DNA of 64,000 nt from a virus. Its lineage: Duplodnaviria; Caudoviricetes. The position numbers and the translations under genes are program-made. Positions 1-58,380 of this stretch are shown one piece after another. The stretch lies in IMG/VR virus record IMGVR_UViG_3300033067_001837, positions 32,001 through 96,000 of that record. The stretch is one strand, 5' to 3'. Within the stretch, counting starts at the first letter, position 1. The number at the start of each line of letters is the position of its first letter. The notes under the pieces were generated by a model that worked only from the letters and a program-made list of their open reading frames with translations, did not search any database and was not told the DNA's origin.

Positions 1-2500
1 GCGTTACTGTAATCGCCCTGGGTGAAAGCAATCGCTTTATAGGCGTAATCCTGAGCGATGCGATGCGCCTCTTCGCGGGGTTTATCCTTCAACTGTTCGC
101 GCATCAGACGATAAGCGGCAATCGCGGTCACTTCGCGGTTCGCGACTTCGGAATGATGGAACAGGAACGCGCCGGTCTTCATCGTTAAATCCCACAGACG
201 ACTGGCCTTACCCTGCCAGTTATCCCGCATCTGCCAGCTATCCTCACCCAGACCCGCTAACTGCGTCGTGGCGGAACGCGATACCCGTCCAGAACGCTCC
301 AGGAACTCCATAAGGCGGCCCATATCGCCCTGATACTCACCGCCCAGGATTTCCATTCCGGCAGCCTCTAATGGGCTAATAGCGCGGTCTATGGTGTAAC
401 CCTGAGCCTCCAGGGCTTTAATCGCTTGTTGATACTCCGCTTCATCCGTATAAGTGGAATACTTCACCTCATTCTGCGAAATCCCGTTCGCATCCGGTAC
501 GGTGCGGCTGGCTTTCAACGCCATCGGCGGTTTCAACGGATTGACACCCATCTTCCGCCAGCGATTCAAGACGCTGGAATAATCGTACATCGCTTTATGA
601 ATTGCGCCGAACGCGGCCCCACCGCCAAATTTGGACGCCAGTTCCGGGAAGGTCATCAGTGGCAACTGTGACAAGTTCACCATCGCCGTTGAGGGATTCG
701 TGAGGTGCCAGATAAAGCCCAGAGCGGTCAGACGGTTCGCCCAGGTCGCATTGGTGGGATTCATTAACCAGTCGTAGGACTTAATCAGTTCATTCAGAAT
801 TGCGCCAGCTTTTGCTTGATCATTTTCATGGGCCGATAGTCCCGTAACTTCTCGCTCCATCTGATAAAGTTGTTCCGACAGCACGTCCGCATAGCGTAGT
901 CGCGCTATCATGTTTGCGGAACCGTTCATAAACCTCCCGTAGGCCCGCAGCGCATCCCGGTTATAACCAAAGATGCCCTTGCGCCGCAGCAGGTGTTTCC
1001 GCACCGATAAGTCGGGCAAATTCTCCAGATAGAGATCGTACAGCGACTGTTTCAGCGCATCCCGTTCTTTCGGGTTGCGTACCGATTCATCAATGAACTG
1101 GTACATTTCACCCACGAACGTCCCACTGGGGGCAGACTCAATCTTGTCGCGTATGATCTGGTAATCTGTGTTGACTGTCCAACCGGCCTTTTCGAGTAAC
1201 TGGCGAGCCTGCTTCTGTTCGTGGATCGTCTCGAATTTCGAGAATGCCACTTCCTTCTCCAGCTTCGGCTGACCTGCCTCATCCAAGACCGGCTGTCCGG
1301 TACGCTTATTAATTTGCGGAATCATCCGTTCGGCAAAGACTTCGTACTTTCCATAGCGGGTCAGCGGGACATACGGCTGCCGACCTCGAGCAGCTTCAGC
1401 GTACAACTGAATCGACGCCATCATATTCTCTTGCCGGGCCTTGAACGCATAGTTCATAGCGCGATACAGCATTTGGGCATCTTCAGGGAGTTGCACCAAT
1501 TCAGCCCGCATCGCCGCGTGTTCTTCCGGCACAAAGGACTTCTGCGAGACCCGATCTACCAGGACGTTAATCGCCCGGCGTTGTGAACTGACAATCAAAT
1601 TTTCCAGCTTCCCGTAGGTCGCTCGATCCCGATCCATCAGTTCCCGCATCCGGGCCGCATGGGGTAGCTCATCGATCTTACGGCGCAACTGATAAAGCGC
1701 TTTCTGCTCATTGGAGAGCGTTTGATAGGTATTCTTCGCCTTTAAAATAGCTGAAGGATCAATTGGGCCGACCGGATCACTGATCTTGAAGCTTATCCCC
1801 GGTGAGTAGCGTTCCCCACGCTTAAACAACCGATACAGCGCCTCCACGACCGTCTTATCCTTGAGGGCTGCTGTCGCCCACTGCTGTTGAAGCTGCGCTG
1901 CCTCGGCCACATCCGCGTGATTATCGGCCATCCGCTTGGCGCGTTCCATCGTCACCCGAACCATCCCATAACCGGCCCGTCCCACTCGCTCCTTCATGGC
2001 GGCATACTTCATGTCATTGACGGACTGATAATTCTCAAACACCCGCTGTACCATATCCGCCAAAATAGGACTTTGCTTTTTCAGTTCCACAATCTTTTGC
2101 GTCAGCACCCCATACCAGCGCACTCGTTCAGCATAGGTGTAATCCGTGTCATCAATCTCACGGGGCGGGAGCGGTTTCGTAGGATCAATGCTGTGTAGCG
2201 TCGATCCATGAAGAATGTAGTCGAACAGATAAGCCGTCTGCCGATTACGCCCGGCCTCGCGCTGCCACTGTGGCACTAGACCATCGTACATATCGCGCTT
2301 AATGCGGCTCTTGGCACCGTCAATCAGTGAAGCAGCGTTCTCAAAGAACTCGGCAGACGGTAGCAACGTCCGTCCCAGTGCCGGGATTTTTCGGCTGGCG
2401 AGTTCAACTAACTGCTGGCGGGTCATCAGCCCCAACCCACGATTAAACCAGTCACGACCTTTATCCCACAACTTCTCCATCGTGAACGGGTCGGGCTGCT
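1..2500 (-). other. PLxRFG-like helical C-terminal region of the giant ORF
   Basis: PYVPLTRYGKY (~1345-1377), RKHLLRRKGIFGY, STAMVNLSQ, SEVANREVTAIAAYRL and TQGDYSN resemble C-terminal regions of large polyvalent phage proteins. Confidence 0.65.
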
Positions 2501-5500
2501 GGTCAAGAATCAACTGGCCAATATCGTCGTTGATGGATTGAGGGGTTGGAAGGGAGTAGCGGATGTCGGAATTAACGCTTAACGCCGTTCTGAAATTCGA
2601 CTGTAGCACCACATCCTTATCGGCGATGCCATCTCGGAACATCGTATTACGGTAAGGCGGGGTCGCTTGCCGTTCTTCCGGCGTCATCTCCAGACGGCTT
2701 GCGGTATCGCGAGCTTCAATTTCTCCAAAATTGCGCTTATAAAGCCCACCAGGACCCCATTTACTAATTTCAAGTGTAAGATTATTTTCTATTTTTACGG
2801 CAGCTTTACGTTTTTCTTCTGCATTCGCACGCTCTTGGCTACCGCGTGGCAGACTATCGCGTAGTCTGGCGAATTTAGTCTTATTGGTTCGCGCCTTTTT
2901 CTGCTGCTTGGTCAGTAGTTCAATCTCGCGCTTGGCGCGTTCGATAACTTCATAATCCTTTTTGAAAAATAAATCATCCTCATCATACAGTGACGAACTT
3001 GCTCCGGGGCTATGGCCTTCTATCGCCTGTACCGCGTGCTGCAATTCATGGATCAATGTCTTCTTAGCGTCTTCATACGTATGCGCCCTAATGTTAATCC
3101 GTTGATCGTTCCGGCCATATGAACCGCCTGCATCATGTATATTCGGATTAATGGTGAGATTAACATTTATACCCTGGAGTTGTGGATAATCAGAAAACAA
3201 TTGTGGATGAGAAACGATTTGCTCTAGTTGAGTCTGAATGCGATTTAGTGTTTCAGGCTGCTGTTGAATCCAGTCCGCGTTGAACGAAAAATCGCTATCG
3301 TCGATTTCAAATCTCCAACGATTATCGAATCCCTTGAACCAGCCTGTTTCCTTGCGTACCGTCTCTGCATCTTCACCGCTCTCAACTCGTTGTTTCGCTT
3401 GTTGCAGTAGCGGCTGATTCGCCGTAGTGGCTCGCACACCCGCATAGCTCTGCACCACGCTCTTTTTCCCGGAAAACACCCAGCGGCTCGTTGCCTCTTC
3501 ACCCTGATTCAGCTTCGCCTGAGATTCCCGCGCAAATTGCAGCACGTCGGTCATCGTTAGCGAGTTCACGAAGTCCTTGGCTAAACCGAATCGTCTCAAT
3601 ACCGCTTTAATCAAGTGCAGCAGCTTGTTCGTTGCCGCCAGCAACAGCCCGATCTTCTCATGCAGTCCGCGTTCAACAGTGACCGCAAAGATTTCACTGG
3701 CGCGATCCAGCTTACTTAAACCAGGCTGAGACGCATCGACTTGTGCGGCAATGGAACGAATTTCGCGATTATCGACCTTCTCCAGACGATCCAGTGCGTT
3801 CAGTACTTGAACGAACTCGGAAGAATCACGAAGATTCTGTGATGACCAATGACCTACAACCTCATGGGATAATACCTCTCTCGCTCTATCTAAAGAAGCA
3901 AGATTATCGGCAATTAGATAAATCTGATTGCTGCGTAAATCATAGAAACCTTCGGCGCGGGGGTCATTGAGGCGTTCCTGTAGGTCAGTAGACAGATCGG
4001 AAACGGACTGAACCACGTTCACCGTCAACCCGGCTCGTTGCCAAGCGACTCGATGCGGGTCAATCAGTTTTTCGACCCCAGAAGCAGAAACCCCGGAAGG
4101 GGCCGGGGTCTGTGGATTCGATTTGGAGTAAACCATGCCCGCAACGGGCGTTCCTGTTAAGCCTTCACGCAACTGTTGTACAACATCCGCCAGTAATCTT
4201 CTGGATTCTCCCACCCCTTCTCCGCTTCTTGATGAAAGGGTAAGCAGATAAGCTGTTCTCTTAAGCGTCGCGCTCCCTGCCTGCGCCGCTCGCGCTCCTG
4301 GGGACTCAGCGAGTGTTGTGAACAAATCTTCTCCAAACGCTCGCCCGGTGTCAGTGTTGATAAATCTTCTGTTTTCGAAGTCATAGCGAATCGCCTTTAA
4401 ATCAGGAACGTTCTCCAGTATATTCTGATTCGACTTTTCAATCAATGACTGGAAATCAGCTTCATCATTTCCTTTCCACTGAATGCCTTGTTTTTCATGC
4501 GGCCACAGGTGCTTGGTCGTACCATGTTTAATAGCTGACGCCAGCATATTCTCGGTGCGTCGGTAAACCGCAATATCGGTGAGTCCCATCGGGTCTCCGA
4601 TAAATACGAGGCCATTATTAGCAGCATAATCAGAGACGGCAGCATAGAAACGACTTCCTTGACCGCCCTCTTTCAGATTGGAGACGTTAATCCAAACGGA
4701 TTGCTTGCGCCGCATTACATAGCCGTGTCTTGTTTCTGAAACTCCACTTTCATCAGTATAAGGAACCCGAATCTCCCATGCCTGCTCAGCATCCACTTCT
4801 AGCGCTTCCGACTTCGGGAGTTCCCGGACAGTAAAATCGGGGACAACCTGCTGAAAGACCTCGGGTAGATTTTTGGAAGTAGCCTTCGGATTCTGGAACA
4901 GCGCCGGGTCTTGCGCCAACAAACGCAGGGCGGTCGTAACAATCTGAGGTTGTGGAGAATTAACGGTAGGCTCGATGATAGATGGGAGACTGTCAGAGCT
5001 AATGGACGGTAGGATAATCGGCTTTGGTTCAAACCCGCTGGCCGTCATCAGTTCTGGTTTCAGCAACGCTACCCAGCTTTCGCCGCCACTGGTGACATCC
5101 ACAGCGTCATAACCAGCGTCCAAAATCAGTTGAGTCAGTTCTGCTGTTAGCTCATCGCTTTGCTGTCCCCAAGTTTCGTCGGTAATCCCGATATTCAGAG
5201 CCGCCTGCTTGTTCAGCCGAATCCATGCGCTATCCGTAGACTCAATGGGCTGAAAGATGACTTCATCTTCCTGCAAGATCGGCAACACTTCTTCGTTGAC
5301 TATCAACGGATTGAGCGGTTGGCGATACTGAATTTTCTTGGTTTTCCCTAATGAGAAGAACGAAGCCGTCCCTTTCTTCTTGGCAATATACACGCCATGG
5401 CCTTCCGTGGCTCCGAAGCTGGGTCCGCCCTCTGGCATGACGCCACGATACCCGGTAACTTGGGGCTGTTGATCGTAAGCGTGTTCTTCCTGCCAGCGTT

Positions 5501-54558: not shown

Positions 54559-54782
54559 CCTGAAATAAGGGAGGTGTCCTCACAGGAGGTATTAGTAAAC
54601 GTCATCCAGTCCTGTAACGCCCCATTTAATTCATTCGTACGCACATGACTACGAATGATCTCAACAAGAATCTCAAGTTGTTTGTCGCGAGAAGTCCGAT
54701 CTAAAGACGGATTCAGTGAGCGATTGAGGATTTCTTGCAGTGTCTTGGAAAACTGTGCGGCGCGAGCGGGATCATTAACCAT
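54531..54782 (-). CDS. Hypothetical protein
   Basis: Overlaps the terL stop; protein-like composition. Confidence 0.5.
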   Translation of the reverse strand: MVNDPARAAQFSKTLQEILNRSLNPSLDRTSRDKQLEILVEIIRSHVRTNELNGALQDWMTFTNTSCEDTSLISGWYRQEFLN

Positions 54783-57700
54783 AAGCAGCTTTTCTCGGTT
54801 TTAAGCGTTTAACATTACTGGGGAGTTCTTCTTCTTTCTCGGCGTCTACGTCAGCGGAGTTGCGCACCAACCATGAATTCGTCAACCAGATAAACGCTTG
54901 AGAAATCGTATCGGCGGTGTCATTGGGATTACCGGGTCGAAAGGTACACATCTCGTCAATCACATCTTCCGCCCATTTCCGATCTGGATAATAAACCCGA
55001 CCGTTCTCAAACAAAGACTGTGCTCGATAGGCACGAGCAATCTTATCATGTTCGGGGTTAAACGCATGAATCGGCAATCCTGCCTTTCTTAAATCCTGCA
55101 CCAGAGAGATACCGGAGGATTTCTTTTCGATAATAATCTTGTCTGGACTGTATTCTCGATAAGCAGCTAATGCCTCTTTCCGTAGAGCCGAATAATCTAC
55201 CTGTCCTTTCCAACGTTCCAGCAAGATCACGTTCGCATAATCTTCATCGGCATGTTGAAACACACCCCACGTTGTGCGGGCGCTAAAAGAATTTGCCTTA
55301 ATGTCCTGTTCGGTATAGGCAGTATCCCAGGATTGAATAATATAACTGCATTCAGGAAGTGGTTTGCTGTCGGGCCATTTCTTCCACCAACCGCGCCGGA
55401 AGATTTCACCCTCTTCAACGAACGGCTTTTGTTGATAAAGAGCTTCCCAATCTCGCGCTGGGAGGGTGCGGCGAATCTTCTCCAGTTCTTCTATCGGGTA
55501 ACGCTCTGGCCACAGCGCCTCGCCTTTCTCGTTAATGGCGGGTAAGTCCAGATGTATCCAGTTTTCGTGACGATGTTCTTTAAGTAACCAACCCGCCAAA
55601 TCCTCAAGTTGCCACCGAGTCTGACAGACAATAATAGAACCACTATCCATTAAACGAGTGTAGGCAACGCTCGTATACCAGTCTTTGAGTTTGCGGCGAC
55701 TTGACTCCGAGTCACTGATTTCTCTCGATTTTATAGGATCATCTACGATTAAACAGTTTTTTACAACCAGGGGCGTCCCCTGGTCTGTCAGTGCTACGAA
55801 ATTATGGTGTTCAAAAACCTCTATGTCATACACTTCGACTAAATCGTTGTATACAGGCTCAACCATGCAAATGATGGCCGTCCCAACTTGTGAACCCTCA
55901 TGTGGCAGGAATGGCAAATAGTCACCATATTCTCCATTACATTGTTTGCTGGATTCTGGTCGATATGATGGATATGAAGAGTCTCCGTTGCATGGCAAGC
56001 CACACACCGCGACCCATCTCTCGCTAGAATCTCCGGTGTCATCCTCCTTAATGTACCTCGATCTATTTCCGTTCCGTCTTGATAATTCGAGTTGTTCTCT
56101 CCCATCATTCTTGTTGAATGACCCTTGTCTGCACATTCCTTTGAGCAATACCATATTCCCGTCCTTCCCCGTTTCTTCGCATACTCCATTTCCCTTCGAT
56201 CCTTCATAAACTCCTTCTGGTATTTCTAGCATTTCGTAGGCAAGTATATTCTGGCCTGCCGTAAGCGATTGGGCTTCGATGTAGCCGACCCCTGCAATGT
56301 AAAATGGGTGTTCTGGTGTGCAGGTGATTGACCCTCTGTTAGTGACAACTCTAACAAGCTCATGTGATTTTCTCCGAGATACGGCCACAATCGGCGACCA
56401 AACAAACGCATTGTTCTTTTCAGAAAACGACAATGCCATTACCGGAGAATTATATCTTAATATATCGGAAATATATATAATACCATGACTTGTTAATATC
56501 TTTGTGTCTCCTGGTAGACAATTTGCGCCACGACCCGTGAGCGCCCCGCCGACACCGACTGCGAAGTAGCCACCTGTTTTCGGATGCGCCAGATTGAATT
56601 TATCGACAGCCGCCGAGTCTTCGGCCAGTTTCACGTCAGGAAAGATTTCTTGAAACAGCGGATCAGCGATTTGGTTGCGGACTTTTCGTCCAAAGTCAGA
56701 GGCGAGGTCTTGCCCGTAGGAAGCCGCGATCACTCGTTTATCGGGGTTGCGTCCTAAATACCAGGCCGGAAAATACTCACTTAGGAGCATGGAATTGTGG
56801 GTAGGGATTAGGGTTCGACCTACAAGGTAGAGGCCGTCTGGAGAATCGACTTGAATACACTTACCTTGCTCACCGTTGGGCTGATAAATAACCTCAGTAA
56901 TCGCCAACCTTCTACGATCAATGGCTATCCAGTCGATTTGCTTCCTTGGAATTTTTGTTGGAATATCCAGTGTCGGCTGAAATCCAATATAGAAAACCGG
57001 CCTTTTTCCTACAATCCCACTACTGCTTGTGCAGGGCTGCTGTTCAGTAACATAAGGTCGTTGCCCAAGTCCTGTTAGTAGATCAACAATGGCGTCTTTA
57101 AGTATAACCGACACCGTAGAAATACGAACCCGCCCGGTTGAACGCTCAACATGTCCATCAGTATCAATCAGTCCTGCCAGCAAATCCAAGCGTTGATCTA
57201 ACGATGACCGAAGATAAATTTCCGGTATATTCTTTTCACCAAGAATTCTCAGTTCTCGCAGGGTTTGTCTAATACCTTGCCAACCAAACCCAACACTAAC
57301 AACACCTGTTGTTGCATGAGTGTTTTCGCTGGTCACCACAAACCCGCGCCGTTCGATCTCTTCTCTCGGCTCACGATCCTTTGGATGATAAACAAAATCT
57401 GATCCAGTAGATGTCCCGTCGCCCAACCAGACTCCCAGAAAATAAGGGTCTAATGGAAGATCGGCGTGATCAAACAACACTGAGCTAGTATCTGGTAGCT
57501 TAAATCTATAGTGATAACCACGTTTCCCAACCGGCCCGTGTCCTGGAGGTTGGGAAAAAAGATACTGAGTTTCTACCACGCGCCACTGGTGCATAAGGCG
57601 ATCAAAAACCCGCCATTCGTGTCTAGCGTGACAACGGATGGTTTCTCCAGAAGTTGTTTTAACCAAAAAATCATCTTGGTGAGTTTCAAACATATCACCA

Positions 57701-58380
57701 CTCGATATAGATTCCGCCAGCACCTCAACCGGATTGCCGGATGGATGAAAAACAAAGTCGCCAACCTTGAGTTCGCCGTGTGTTTTCCAGCCATCCATCG
57801 TTAAAACTGGGGTACTGTGGGCACATTCCTTTCCGTGCCTCGGTGGAACCGTGATCATCAACCGCTTAATCTCTCCCCGCTCCACTCGCTCCAGGTACTG
57901 CGCGATCAGACGATGATGCGTAGCAGGTTCATAGTTCGCCCACTGCAAGCAGGCGTAGGACAATAGGGCATCGTGCGCGAACGCCACCGCAGGATCACCG
58001 TCCACAATAATAGGAGGGTCTTGAATCGGGACGCCAGCCCTCATGCGTTTAATGATGGTGTGCCGCTTCTTGATCGACTTCCTGAGCGCTGCATCGCCCT
58101 TGCGCCCCACAGGATTTAAACACCCGCAGCTTTTACGTTTATTGTTCTGTAAGGCATAGGCTGACACCTCGCACAGCGTCCCGCAGTCGCACCAGCACTT
58201 CCAGTACACCCGCCCCTCCGTATGATGCGAAAAGGCGTATACCGTCAGGTGATGAATGTTCTTCCCGCGCATATCAAGAATGCGATGATTCTTGATCAGG
58301 GTTGTTTCAATCTCGGGGCAGGGAACCGGGTTCGGTTGCGGTTCGCGTTCGCGTTTAGGTCTCGGCTGTTTCTTGATCAT
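54775..58380 (-). CDS. terL: Terminase large subunit with two inteins and an N-terminal Cys-rich extension
   Basis: RLMITVPPRHGK|SMLLSEYFPAW, ALTGRGAN|CLIVDDPIK, QTRWQLEDLAG, LWPERY, ALYQQKP, IQSWDTA, IEKKSSG, NDTADTISQA. Confidence 0.95.
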   Translation of the reverse strand: MIKKQPRPKREREPQPNPVPCPEIETTLIKNHRILDMRGKNIHHLTVYAFSHHTEGRVYWKCWCDCGTLCEVSAYALQNNKRKSCGCLNPVGRKGDAALRKSIKKRHTIIKRMRAGVPIQDPPIIVDGDPAVAFAHDALLSYACLQWANYEPATHHRLIAQYLERVERGEIKRLMITVPPRHGKECAHSTPVLTMDGWKTHGELKVGDFVFHPSGNPVEVLAESISSGDMFETHQDDFLVKTTSGETIRCHARHEWRVFDRLMHQWRVVETQYLFSQPPGHGPVGKRGYHYRFKLPDTSSVLFDHADLPLDPYFLGVWLGDGTSTGSDFVYHPKDREPREEIERRGFVVTSENTHATTGVVSVGFGWQGIRQTLRELRILGEKNIPEIYLRSSLDQRLDLLAGLIDTDGHVERSTGRVRISTVSVILKDAIVDLLTGLGQRPYVTEQQPCTSSSGIVGKRPVFYIGFQPTLDIPTKIPRKQIDWIAIDRRRLAITEVIYQPNGEQGKCIQVDSPDGLYLVGRTLIPTHNSMLLSEYFPAWYLGRNPDKRVIAASYGQDLASDFGRKVRNQIADPLFQEIFPDVKLAEDSAAVDKFNLAHPKTGGYFAVGVGGALTGRGANCLPGDTKILTSHGIIYISDILRYNSPVMALSFSEKNNAFVWSPIVAVSRRKSHELVRVVTNRGSITCTPEHPFYIAGVGYIEAQSLTAGQNILAYEMLEIPEGVYEGSKGNGVCEETGKDGNMVLLKGMCRQGSFNKNDGREQLELSRRNGNRSRYIKEDDTGDSSERWVAVCGLPCNGDSSYPSYRPESSKQCNGEYGDYLPFLPHEGSQVGTAIICMVEPVYNDLVEVYDIEVFEHHNFVALTDQGTPLVVKNCLIVDDPIKSREISDSESSRRKLKDWYTSVAYTRLMDSGSIIVCQTRWQLEDLAGWLLKEHRHENWIHLDLPAINEKGEALWPERYPIEELEKIRRTLPARDWEALYQQKPFVEEGEIFRRGWWKKWPDSKPLPECSYIIQSWDTAYTEQDIKANSFSARTTWGVFQHADEDYANVILLERWKGQVDYSALRKEALAAYREYSPDKIIIEKKSSGISLVQDLRKAGLPIHAFNPEHDKIARAYRAQSLFENGRVYYPDRKWAEDVIDEMCTFRPGNPNDTADTISQAFIWLTNSWLVRNSADVDAEKEEELPSNVKRLKPRKAAYG
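55756..56520 (-). mobile_element. Intein (255 aa) in TerL just before Walker B, ending Lys-Asn
   Basis: GAN|CLPGDTKILT...CTPEHPF...VYDIEVFEHHNFVA...VVKN|CLIVDD; the in-frame central insert shows no endonuclease motif. Confidence 0.88.
55839..56207 (-). CDS. HNH endonuclease encoded in the +1 frame inside the TerL intein
   Basis: WYCSKEC...GENNSNYQDG...ILARDGSRCVAC...LHIHHIDQNPANNVMENMVTICHSCHMRVH; AAGGAG and AAGGA SD-like sequences before the first two ATGs. Confidence 0.85.
   Translation of the reverse strand: MKDRREMEYAKKRGRTGIWYCSKECADKGHSTRMMGENNSNYQDGTEIDRGTLRRMTPEILARDGSRCVACHATETLHIHHIDQNPANNVMENMVTICHSCHMRVHKLGRPSFAWLSLYTTI
56794..57828 (-). mobile_element. Class 3-type LAGLIDADG intein (345 aa) in the TerL Walker A motif
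   Basis: PPRHGK|ECAHSTPVLT...HARHEW...YFLGVWLGDG...LAGLIDTDG...KCIQVD...LIPTHN|S; W-C-T triad present. Confidence 0.88.

Follow-up and report, generated by a model that had tools for sequence, protein, structure and literature searches.

We analysed a 64,000-nucleotide (nt) stretch of viral DNA, hereafter the window, that corresponds to positions 32001-96000 of the 110,582-bp IMG/VR virus record IMGVR_UViG_3300033067_001837 (Duplodnaviria; Caudoviricetes), which CheckV rates as complete. On its minus strand lies terL, the gene for the large terminase subunit, a single open reading frame (ORF) that holds two inteins. Our subject is the second intein: its splicing halves belong to the terL frame, and the DNA between them carries, in the +1 frame, an ORF for a predicted HNH homing endonuclease whose copy in the window appears to have decayed. 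The terL ORF contains a Terminase_6C nuclease domain (2.9e-07, exceeding the Pfam cut-off), and the exteins share 31-39% identity with annotated phage TerL proteins. The features of the locus are listed below; confidences of predicted structures are given as pLDDT scores (predicted local distance difference test), lengths of proteins in amino acids (aa), and splice points in motifs are marked by a caret.

54775-58380, minus strand: terL, large terminase subunit, single ORF for a 1201-aa precursor with two inteins
56794-57825, minus strand: intein 1 of terL (344 aa from Cys186 on), carrying a LAGLIDADG endonuclease in frame (LAGLIDADG_3 and Hom_end matches)
56520 down to 55756 (Cys621-Asn875), minus strand: intein 2 of terL, 255 aa, class-1-type, blocks A, B, F and G present
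56221-56520, minus strand: N-terminal splicing domain of intein 2, intein residues 1-100, terL frame, pLDDT 81-97
55897-56211, minus strand: stop-free terL-frame linker of intein 2 (intein residues 104-208), with predicted disorder and with the HNH core in the +1 frame
55756-55890, minus strand: C-terminal splicing domain of intein 2, blocks F and G, pLDDT 85-95
55839-56207, minus strand: +1-frame HNH ORF, 122 aa, from the ATG at 56207 to the TAG at 55839-55841, comprising the catalytic core and the second half of one zinc ribbon (YCSKEC)

Intein 2 is inserted between ..TGRGAN and CLIVDDP, with the junctions ..TGRGAN^CLPGDT and VVKN^CLIVDDP. The initial annotation of this locus, made from the sequence alone, had described normal splicing blocks around an in-frame centre without any recognizable domain, and both parts of that description hold. 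The nucleophile is C621 and the C-terminal junction is N875^C876; the first Cys and the terminal Asn are invariant in an alignment of 14 inteins, and block B (TPEH), VYDIEV..HNF and VVKN^C are all in place. In an AlphaFold2 model built on the alignment of the 14 related inteins, residues 1-100 and 211-255 are predicted with high scores (pLDDT 81-97), and residues 104-208 fall below 50 and show no secondary structure. The in-frame centre has no match in Pfam or among the PHROG families. When the structured part was compared by Foldseek with solved mini-inteins, among them those of Ssp DnaB, Mtu RecA and Npu DnaE, E values were 2e-7 to 1e-5 and target TM-scores 0.77-0.87. Intein 2 is thus modeled as a HINT fold with a disordered centre, and because terL is essential, it would still have to splice.

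The same DNA is open from stop to stop in the +1 frame over 128 codons (55842-56225, 384 nt). A phmmer search with the HNH ORF gave 7234 matches at E <=0.001 (best 2e-23) in a representative library of 1.8 billion proteins, and the ORF matched the family phrog_1271, 'HNH endonuclease', at 5.1e-16. The core residues C68, C71, H80, H81, N93, C98, H102 and H106 occupy invariant or near-invariant columns in alignments of 24 and 39 sequences; 17 of the 24 aligned homologues match PF01844, and in the Protein Data Bank (PDB) the family profile picks out the HNH domains of IscB, phage GVE2 HNH and McrA at 1e-9 to 7e-5. The AlphaFold2 model (pLDDT 83 overall, 90-97 in the core) shows, over residues 77-108, two strands and then a helix. 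By profile match and catalytic residues, the +1 ORF would therefore encode an HNH (His-Me finger) endonuclease. The search of both frames with profile models that the initial annotation had proposed thus returns an HNH match in the +1 frame and none in the centre of the intein. Its description of the HNH as complete is not supported: the catalytic core is whole, but the N-terminal ribbons are lost and half a zinc ribbon is left, the match to phrog_1271 covering positions 221-318 of a 361-position profile.

To place the window among its relatives, we scanned IMG/VR with a profile made from the HNH alignment and recovered 80 loci. A scan of viral contigs with the single HNH protein had found nothing, so that the alignment was needed. 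The HNH ORF (145-354 codons) lies wholly within an ORF of 527-1219 codons in 17 of the 80 loci, among them all 13 best matches, and its offset relative to that host ORF is always +1 and never +2. In most of the 17 host ORFs the same site shows TerL-intein junctions, which follow the pattern G.RAD or GGN^C[FL]..G[TS] ... VYDIQVE..NFFA.G.LVHN^C[ILV]I[IV]DDP, and the embedded HNH ORFs extend to within a few tens of bases of the end of the intein. The trace of this arrangement is visible in proteins as well. Most of the 150 best database homologues of the HNH end in a C-terminal tail like SMTSKWKE..FSSTTA; read at +1, intein blocks F (VYDLEVE) and G (LVHN) give this tail. We also observed that many public proteins of the HNH family (P0004-P0153) have an N-terminal stretch, ..QLGY.GSPL.L.EWL.., that is the +1 reading of a conserved intein block. 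Searches of called proteins were less productive: with the HNH no candidate was found, and an allele of the X3 type (described below) was not confirmed from called proteins; with the intein region the search returned only the window's own protein and one relative with 49% identity. Taken together, the nested +1 HNH appears to be the normal state of a large TerL-intein lineage that includes the Brucella phages Tb and Pr and many uncultured phages. Every Brucella phage of the Tb/Pr group has the layout, at the same TerL site. Homologues in which the HNH frame is not conserved had been named at the outset as an observation that would speak against an overprinted nuclease; the 17 loci point the other way.

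Two frames that remain open over the same DNA could in principle reflect chance. Across the 128 codons of the HNH frame, the terL frame contains no stops and the third frame contains 10. When the 128 HNH codons were redrawn synonymously, the terL frame stayed open in 2 of 20,000 trials. Likewise, the host frame has no stops per 100 codons in the embedded copies and 13 in the other 63 loci, which are free-standing relatives; the third frame has about 5 in both groups. The stop-free double frame that had been noted initially is hence real, over 384 nt, and is not a product of chance; selection keeps the terL frame open.

We then examined which frame is constrained, and where. An alignment of 18 sequences over 107 codons gave nucleotide entropies of 1.21, 1.08 and 1.54 for the first, second and third HNH codon positions, a profile typical of coding sequence when read in the HNH frame and reversed in the intein frame. 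Mean pairwise amino-acid identity over the same bases was 38.7% in the HNH frame vs. 20.3% in the intein frame. A single pair of sequences shows the same asymmetry: the related locus L009 and Brucella phage Tb differ at 57, 37 and 108 sites at HNH codon positions 1, 2 and 3, with 73% identity in the HNH frame vs. 42% in the intein frame. Finally, we counted synonymous/non-synonymous differences between the window and its nearest relative, the European Nucleotide Archive (ENA) contig L096, with each segment read in both frames:

N-terminal splicing part: terL frame 42/51; +1 (HNH) frame 26/67
HNH core: terL frame 15/65; +1 (HNH) frame 43/37
Blocks F-G: terL frame 14/4; +1 (HNH) frame 2/16

These counts indicate that, along the intein, constraint lies first on the terL frame, then on the HNH frame and finally on the terL frame again. 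In its central part the intein is thus under purifying selection in the HNH frame, and its two ends are under selection in the intein frame, in support of the dual-coding intein and HNH element originally suggested, in which the intein frame is kept open.

The copy in the window differs from this family pattern in its N-terminal part. HNH proteins of the family carry two to four N-terminal zinc-ribbon modules, CxxC..(K/Q)EF....[YF]CSxxC, ahead of the core. The ORF of the window, at 122 aa, is also short next to the 245-354 codons of its counterparts at related loci. In L096, whose TerL exteins are 84-88% and splicing halves 80-84% identical to those of the window, a 340-aa intein of the same lineage contains a 290-codon +1 ORF in which all three ribbons are complete. 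Compared with L096, 153 + 99 + 3 nt (255 nt) are missing from the window, each gap being a multiple of three; at the junction, near 56161, the deletions join the knuckle of the first ribbon to the YCSKEC of the last, and two of the three ribbon modules are lost. The remaining features of this region are as follows:

56226-56411, minus strand: 61-codon +1 ORF from the ATG at 56411 to a TAG, apparently the cut-off former N-terminal part of the HNH, overlapping intein block B
56226-56228, minus strand: TAG nonsense codon in the HNH frame, within the remaining zinc knuckle; TCG in strain X3
56220-56222, minus strand: TAC (Tyr) at the position of the second Cys of the knuckle, where the family consensus is CxxC
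56211-56216, minus strand: AAGGAG, a hexamer resembling a Shine-Dalgarno (SD) sequence, 3 nt upstream of the ATG at 56207, encoding the Lys-Glu of the ribbon motif (K/Q)EF

A near-identical strain from the freshwater metagenome of another study, X3, differs from the window by 21 substitutions and by no insertion or deletion. Two of these substitutions fall in the broken knuckle. The change 56227 T>G converts the TAG to TCG (Ser) and is synonymous (Leu) in the terL frame, and 56221 T>C converts TAC (Tyr) to TGC (Cys); together, the X3 bases rebuild ..PTKCSKCQKEF....WYCSKEC, and the 61-codon ORF that starts at 56411 becomes continuous with the HNH ORF. It had been proposed initially that the TAG marks the loss of a longer N-terminal zinc finger, and the C-S-K-C of X3 and the three full ribbons of L096 bear this out. 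We interpret the window copy as a decayed allele of the overprinted HNH, and its endonuclease is probably weakened or dead. Two side observations concern these relatives. Low-depth X3 contigs, which are loose ends, depart from the window at 56134-56151, just upstream of the YCSKEC codons, and read ..EFHKKRAKQMYCSKEC in the HNH frame (hand translation); this would be a third ribbon-linker allele in the sample. In L096, an in-frame stop at 3072-3074 falls in the C-extein where the window has Ile; coverage there is about 1x, and a sequencing error is likely.

Several results weigh against the reading of this locus as a splicing intein with a decayed, overprinted HNH. On its own, intein 2 scores 25.2 bits in the Pfam model Intein_splicing, for which the cut-off is 35.8; we attribute this to the limited sensitivity of a single-sequence search and do not take it as evidence against intein membership. 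Its penultimate residue is Lys where relatives have His, and the alignment shows a 5-aa insert in block G. A penultimate His is common in inteins but not obligatory. The window HNH ORF alone reaches 17.3 bits with the Pfam HNH model (cut-off 21.4), and Foldseek comparison of its model with the PDB was weak (E 0.02-0.3), the matches being mostly HNH nucleases. The X3 allele is known from Logan contigs with a depth of 2.9-4.5, although two sequencing errors that exactly restore the CxxC and remove the stop are very unlikely. The catalytic core of the window copy is fully intact and an SD-like site and an ATG follow 18 nt past the TAG, and the 122-aa remnant could still be made and active.

This last point leads to the rival view that a product of 122 aa, or of 116 aa from a second ATG at 56189, is still an active homing endonuclease with its own start, possibly reached by re-initiation after the TAG. 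Every invariant catalytic and zinc-binding residue is retained, the core is modeled at pLDDT 90-97, the ATG at 56207 is preceded by AAGGAG and that at 56189 by GAAGGA 10 nt upstream, and the HNH-frame core shows 43 synonymous and 37 non-synonymous differences from L096. However, the two to four N-terminal ribbons, likely the DNA-recognition part, are lost, the last knuckle is broken by both a stop and a Cys-to-Tyr change, and the selection signal would mostly stem from the history preceding the truncation. Of the SD-like sequences before the ATGs, which had been noted initially, AAGGAG is present, but it encodes the conserved Lys-Glu and lies only 3 nt from the ATG, and it is therefore weak evidence for a start at 56207. 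At the same position, L096 carries GGAAAGGAATTT, coding G-K-E-F, and the hexamer can be seen as a by-product of these codons. In related loci, an ATG occurs within about 20 codons of the upstream stop, usually without an SD sequence and overlapping block B; its counterpart in the window is the ATG at 56411. On balance, activity of the remnant seems doubtful to us. We also considered that the nuclease might have no separate start and that ribosomes translating terL shift to +1 within the intein, yielding a fusion of the N-terminal part of TerL, the N-terminal intein half (IntN) and the HNH. Candidate starts in 15 related loci have no consistent SD sequence, and the database proteins P0005 and P0041 encode the N-extein, IntN and HNH in one frame. 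Such fusions remain highly improbable as the regular product, given that stops in IntN close the HNH frame, that an ATG lies within about 20 codons in nearly all loci, that we saw no conserved slippery site, and that in the window the TAG divides IntN from the core. Two related contigs are of interest here: in L005 (1532-1560) and L006 (698-1565), the HNH shares its frame with the N-extein and the N-terminal intein half, and the C-terminal half lies at -1. The frame change in L005 amounts to the loss of one T (CCTTAT to CCTAT) just past block B, which accounts for its fusion, and we dropped the two contigs as evidence of programmed frameshifting; they could be assembly errors, dead alleles or real fusions. 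A broader form of the idea, in which the HNH is coupled to terL translation either by a +1 shift or, in the window allele, by termination at the TAG and re-initiation 18 nt on, is very improbable too. If it were true, the nuclease would be made only alongside terL, possibly as the TerL-IntN-HNH fusion, and the two database fusion loci would be fixed versions of the coupled product. Read-through or recoding of the TAG was rejected: the 110.6-kb genome encodes no suppressor tRNA (only tRNA-Met and tRNA-Tyr), and long ORFs are open under code 11. Among the 25 window ORFs of at least 200 codons, stops are TAG in 1, TGA in 13 and TAA in 11; the HNH ORF is bounded or followed by three stops, each of them TAG.

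The remaining rivals concern the reality and the role of the nested frame. If two compensating indels in the assembly or in the reads masked an ordinary intein with an in-frame HNH, as the initial annotation had cautioned, the overprinting would be an artefact. We found nothing in favour of this for the window; the related contigs L005 and L006 do have single frameshifts. An independent Logan assembly, a 110,612-bp contig with a depth of 19 that possibly derives from the source sample, is identical to the window over 55600-56700, and no indel separates the window from strain X3. The same +1 offset recurs in the 17 IMG/VR loci and in >40 Brucella phage records, and the HNH frame spans the region from before block B to past block F with no internal junction. 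We consider the probability of an artefact to be next to nil. (Two pieces of the stretch also occur in an RNA run, X5, but only as contigs, from which transcription cannot be read, and this run was not used as evidence. Runs X6-X15, with small word shares, were left out of account for habitat, and no conclusions were drawn from parts of the stretch that lack cover in X2, X3 and X5.) The nested HNH might instead serve DNA packaging as a terminase accessory nuclease of the HK97 gp74 type, rather than homing. Its location inside terL is suggestive, and the idea was raised by the authors of the Brucella phage paper. It is nonetheless very improbable here, as the HNH occurs only where the intein is, being missing from two relatives with an empty site (L088 and L089) and from one with a mini-intein (L087), as it appears to be decaying in the window, and as a paralogue in the same genome lies within a methylase gene. 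A nuclease like HK97 gp74 would be a stand-alone HNH conserved beside the terminase and portal genes, and the HNH of the window is nested in an intein.

A homing element that has decayed in the window agrees best with the states of the intein-2 site that we found in a clade of TerL sequences with exteins 74-89% identical:

L096: same intein lineage, full three-ribbon nuclease
Strain X3: one-ribbon form
Window: form with the nonsense codon and the Cys loss
L005: different, Brucella-like intein lineage (32-40% identical), full +1 HNH, 1-nt deletion
L087: 137-aa mini-intein, no nuclease
L088 and L089 (114-kb sister phage): empty site, ..TGRGAH^CIIVDDP

These states form the pattern expected of a homing element that invades, decays and is lost. 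In the mechanism that we propose, an intein would have been inserted in terL just before CLIVDDP, with its splicing halves read in the terL frame. The approximately 105 codons between the halves would serve as a stop-free, unstructured linker in the terL frame and encode a zinc-ribbon HNH homing endonuclease at +1. The nuclease would cut intein-less terL alleles (..GRGA[N/H]^C[LI]I[VI]DDP), and repair would then copy the intein into the cleaved site. In the lineage of the window, in-frame deletions totaling 255 nt would have removed two of the three ribbon modules; the TAG and the Cys-to-Tyr change in the last knuckle would have followed, leaving as a residue the 122-aa ORF with the catalytic core only. 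We assign a probability of roughly 85% to this explanation as a whole, a homing HNH nested in a TerL intein whose copy in the window has decayed. We observed the architecture, conservation, frame-specific selection, allelic series and empty sites, and infer splicing, separate translation, cleavage and homing. The invasion of a mini-intein by a free-standing HNH gene, as suggested initially, is a putative origin.

The first intein of terL is separate from the overprinted HNH. Its junctions are GKE^C...THN^SML, and it is missing from L088 and L089. In these intein-free alleles the sequence reads GK^S where the N-extein of the window ends in GKE^C (intein 1 taken as 56794-57828, minus strand), and one additional residue goes with the intein (E in the window, Q in L087, M in L096). 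At its block B, F and G positions, Trp, Cys and Thr hint at a class 3 intein that begins one residue earlier.

Two further loci of the same genome resemble the one described here. In L002 (about G000:C1:107880-109643, outside the window), a 587-aa N6/N4 DNA methylase ORF (824-2587, minus strand; PF01555, 4.7e-34) remains open over the length of a 178-aa HNH gene encoded on the other strand (1288-1824, plus strand; PF01844, 2e-8). This HNH is 30% identical to that of the window, and no intein motifs are visible; the arrangement is like that of the ShiLan domain (see below) but antisense. In L095 (G000:C1:9000-14500), a helicase-like ORF (3-4694, minus strand; at least 1564 aa) apparently has three inteins. 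The middle one, CFPAGT...VLVKN^C, has a penultimate Lys as in intein 2 of the window, and it contains a 226-aa +1 ORF (1955-2635, minus strand) that looks like a zinc finger joined to a Vsr/DUF559-type nuclease. It would be a second intein with an overprinted endonuclease in the same phage.

The initial annotation had suspected that similar architectures might have been reported, and the layout has indeed been published. In the RefSeq record of Brucella phage Tb (NC_019446), terL (2347-4893) is annotated as 'intein present' and is overlapped by an HNH coding sequence (3170-3856) at +1 (F354_gp07 and gp08); the case of phages Tb and Pr was annotated in 2012 and discussed in 2015 (PMC4422536). 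Tb and Pr (Perisivirus) share with the window the identical TerL insertion site (Tb ..GNRAD^C ... HN^CVIIDDP) and the HNH at +1, and Tb has a homologous splicing domain and a zinc-ribbon HNH that is 42.6% identical over 93 aa. In contrast to the core and half ribbon of the window, the HNH ORF of Tb (228 aa) is intact and has several zinc ribbons. The phages themselves are unrelated to that of the window, at 38-41 kb vs. 110.6 kb and with TerL exteins of <40% identity. Sister architectures are known from other systems. In the non-canonical inteins of actinobacteriophages, many of them in terL, an endonuclease lies between the splicing blocks in another frame or strand, and an origin by invasion of free-standing endonucleases has been proposed (Gosselin, Arsenault, Gogarten; bioRxiv 10.1101/2025.01.02.630785). 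The out-of-frame case on the same strand is endonuclease VII-like there and in 'frame 3', and the inteins with an HNH carry it in frame; no classic zinc-ribbon HNH at +1 is described in that work. An out-of-frame LAGLIDADG endonuclease occurs in a cyanobacterial dnaX intein (Phillips et al., bioRxiv 10.64898/2026.09.14.751524, citing Gorbalenya 1998), which resembles the element of the window in its overlapping endonuclease ORF, in purifying selection that switches frame, and in the coexistence of full, mini-intein and empty alleles, but differs in its cellular host gene, its nuclease family and its frame offset. The ShiLan domain is a hidden, out-of-frame HNH in a phage DNA methylase (Arsenault et al., PMC11855218) where the host frame is likewise kept stop-free; it has no splicing domain and the insert remains in the host protein, whereas the element of the window is a true intein. 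Finally, the dCTP deaminase intein of cyanophage CL131 (PMC6293099) also combines a HINT splicing domain and an HNH as a mobile unit, but its HNH forms a domain of the intein polypeptide, and that of the window occupies a separate reading frame.

An HNH overprinted in a TerL intein is, therefore, not new as an architecture, and the part specific to the window is the decayed allele. The locus adds a further well-documented homing endonuclease that is written over the linker of an intein in a second frame. For annotation, it implies that the tails of many database 'HNH endonuclease' entries are nothing more than blocks F and G read at +1, and that gene callers usually miss the nuclease or the overlap; conversely, such tails and N-terminal stretches are a usable signature for finding overprinted inteins from protein databases alone. 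The public data also reveal that the pairing of a zinc-ribbon HNH with a TerL intein, originally found in Brucella phages, occurs widely in uncultured phages, and the allelic series within a single TerL clade provides a natural snapshot of the homing cycle of an overprinted endonuclease.

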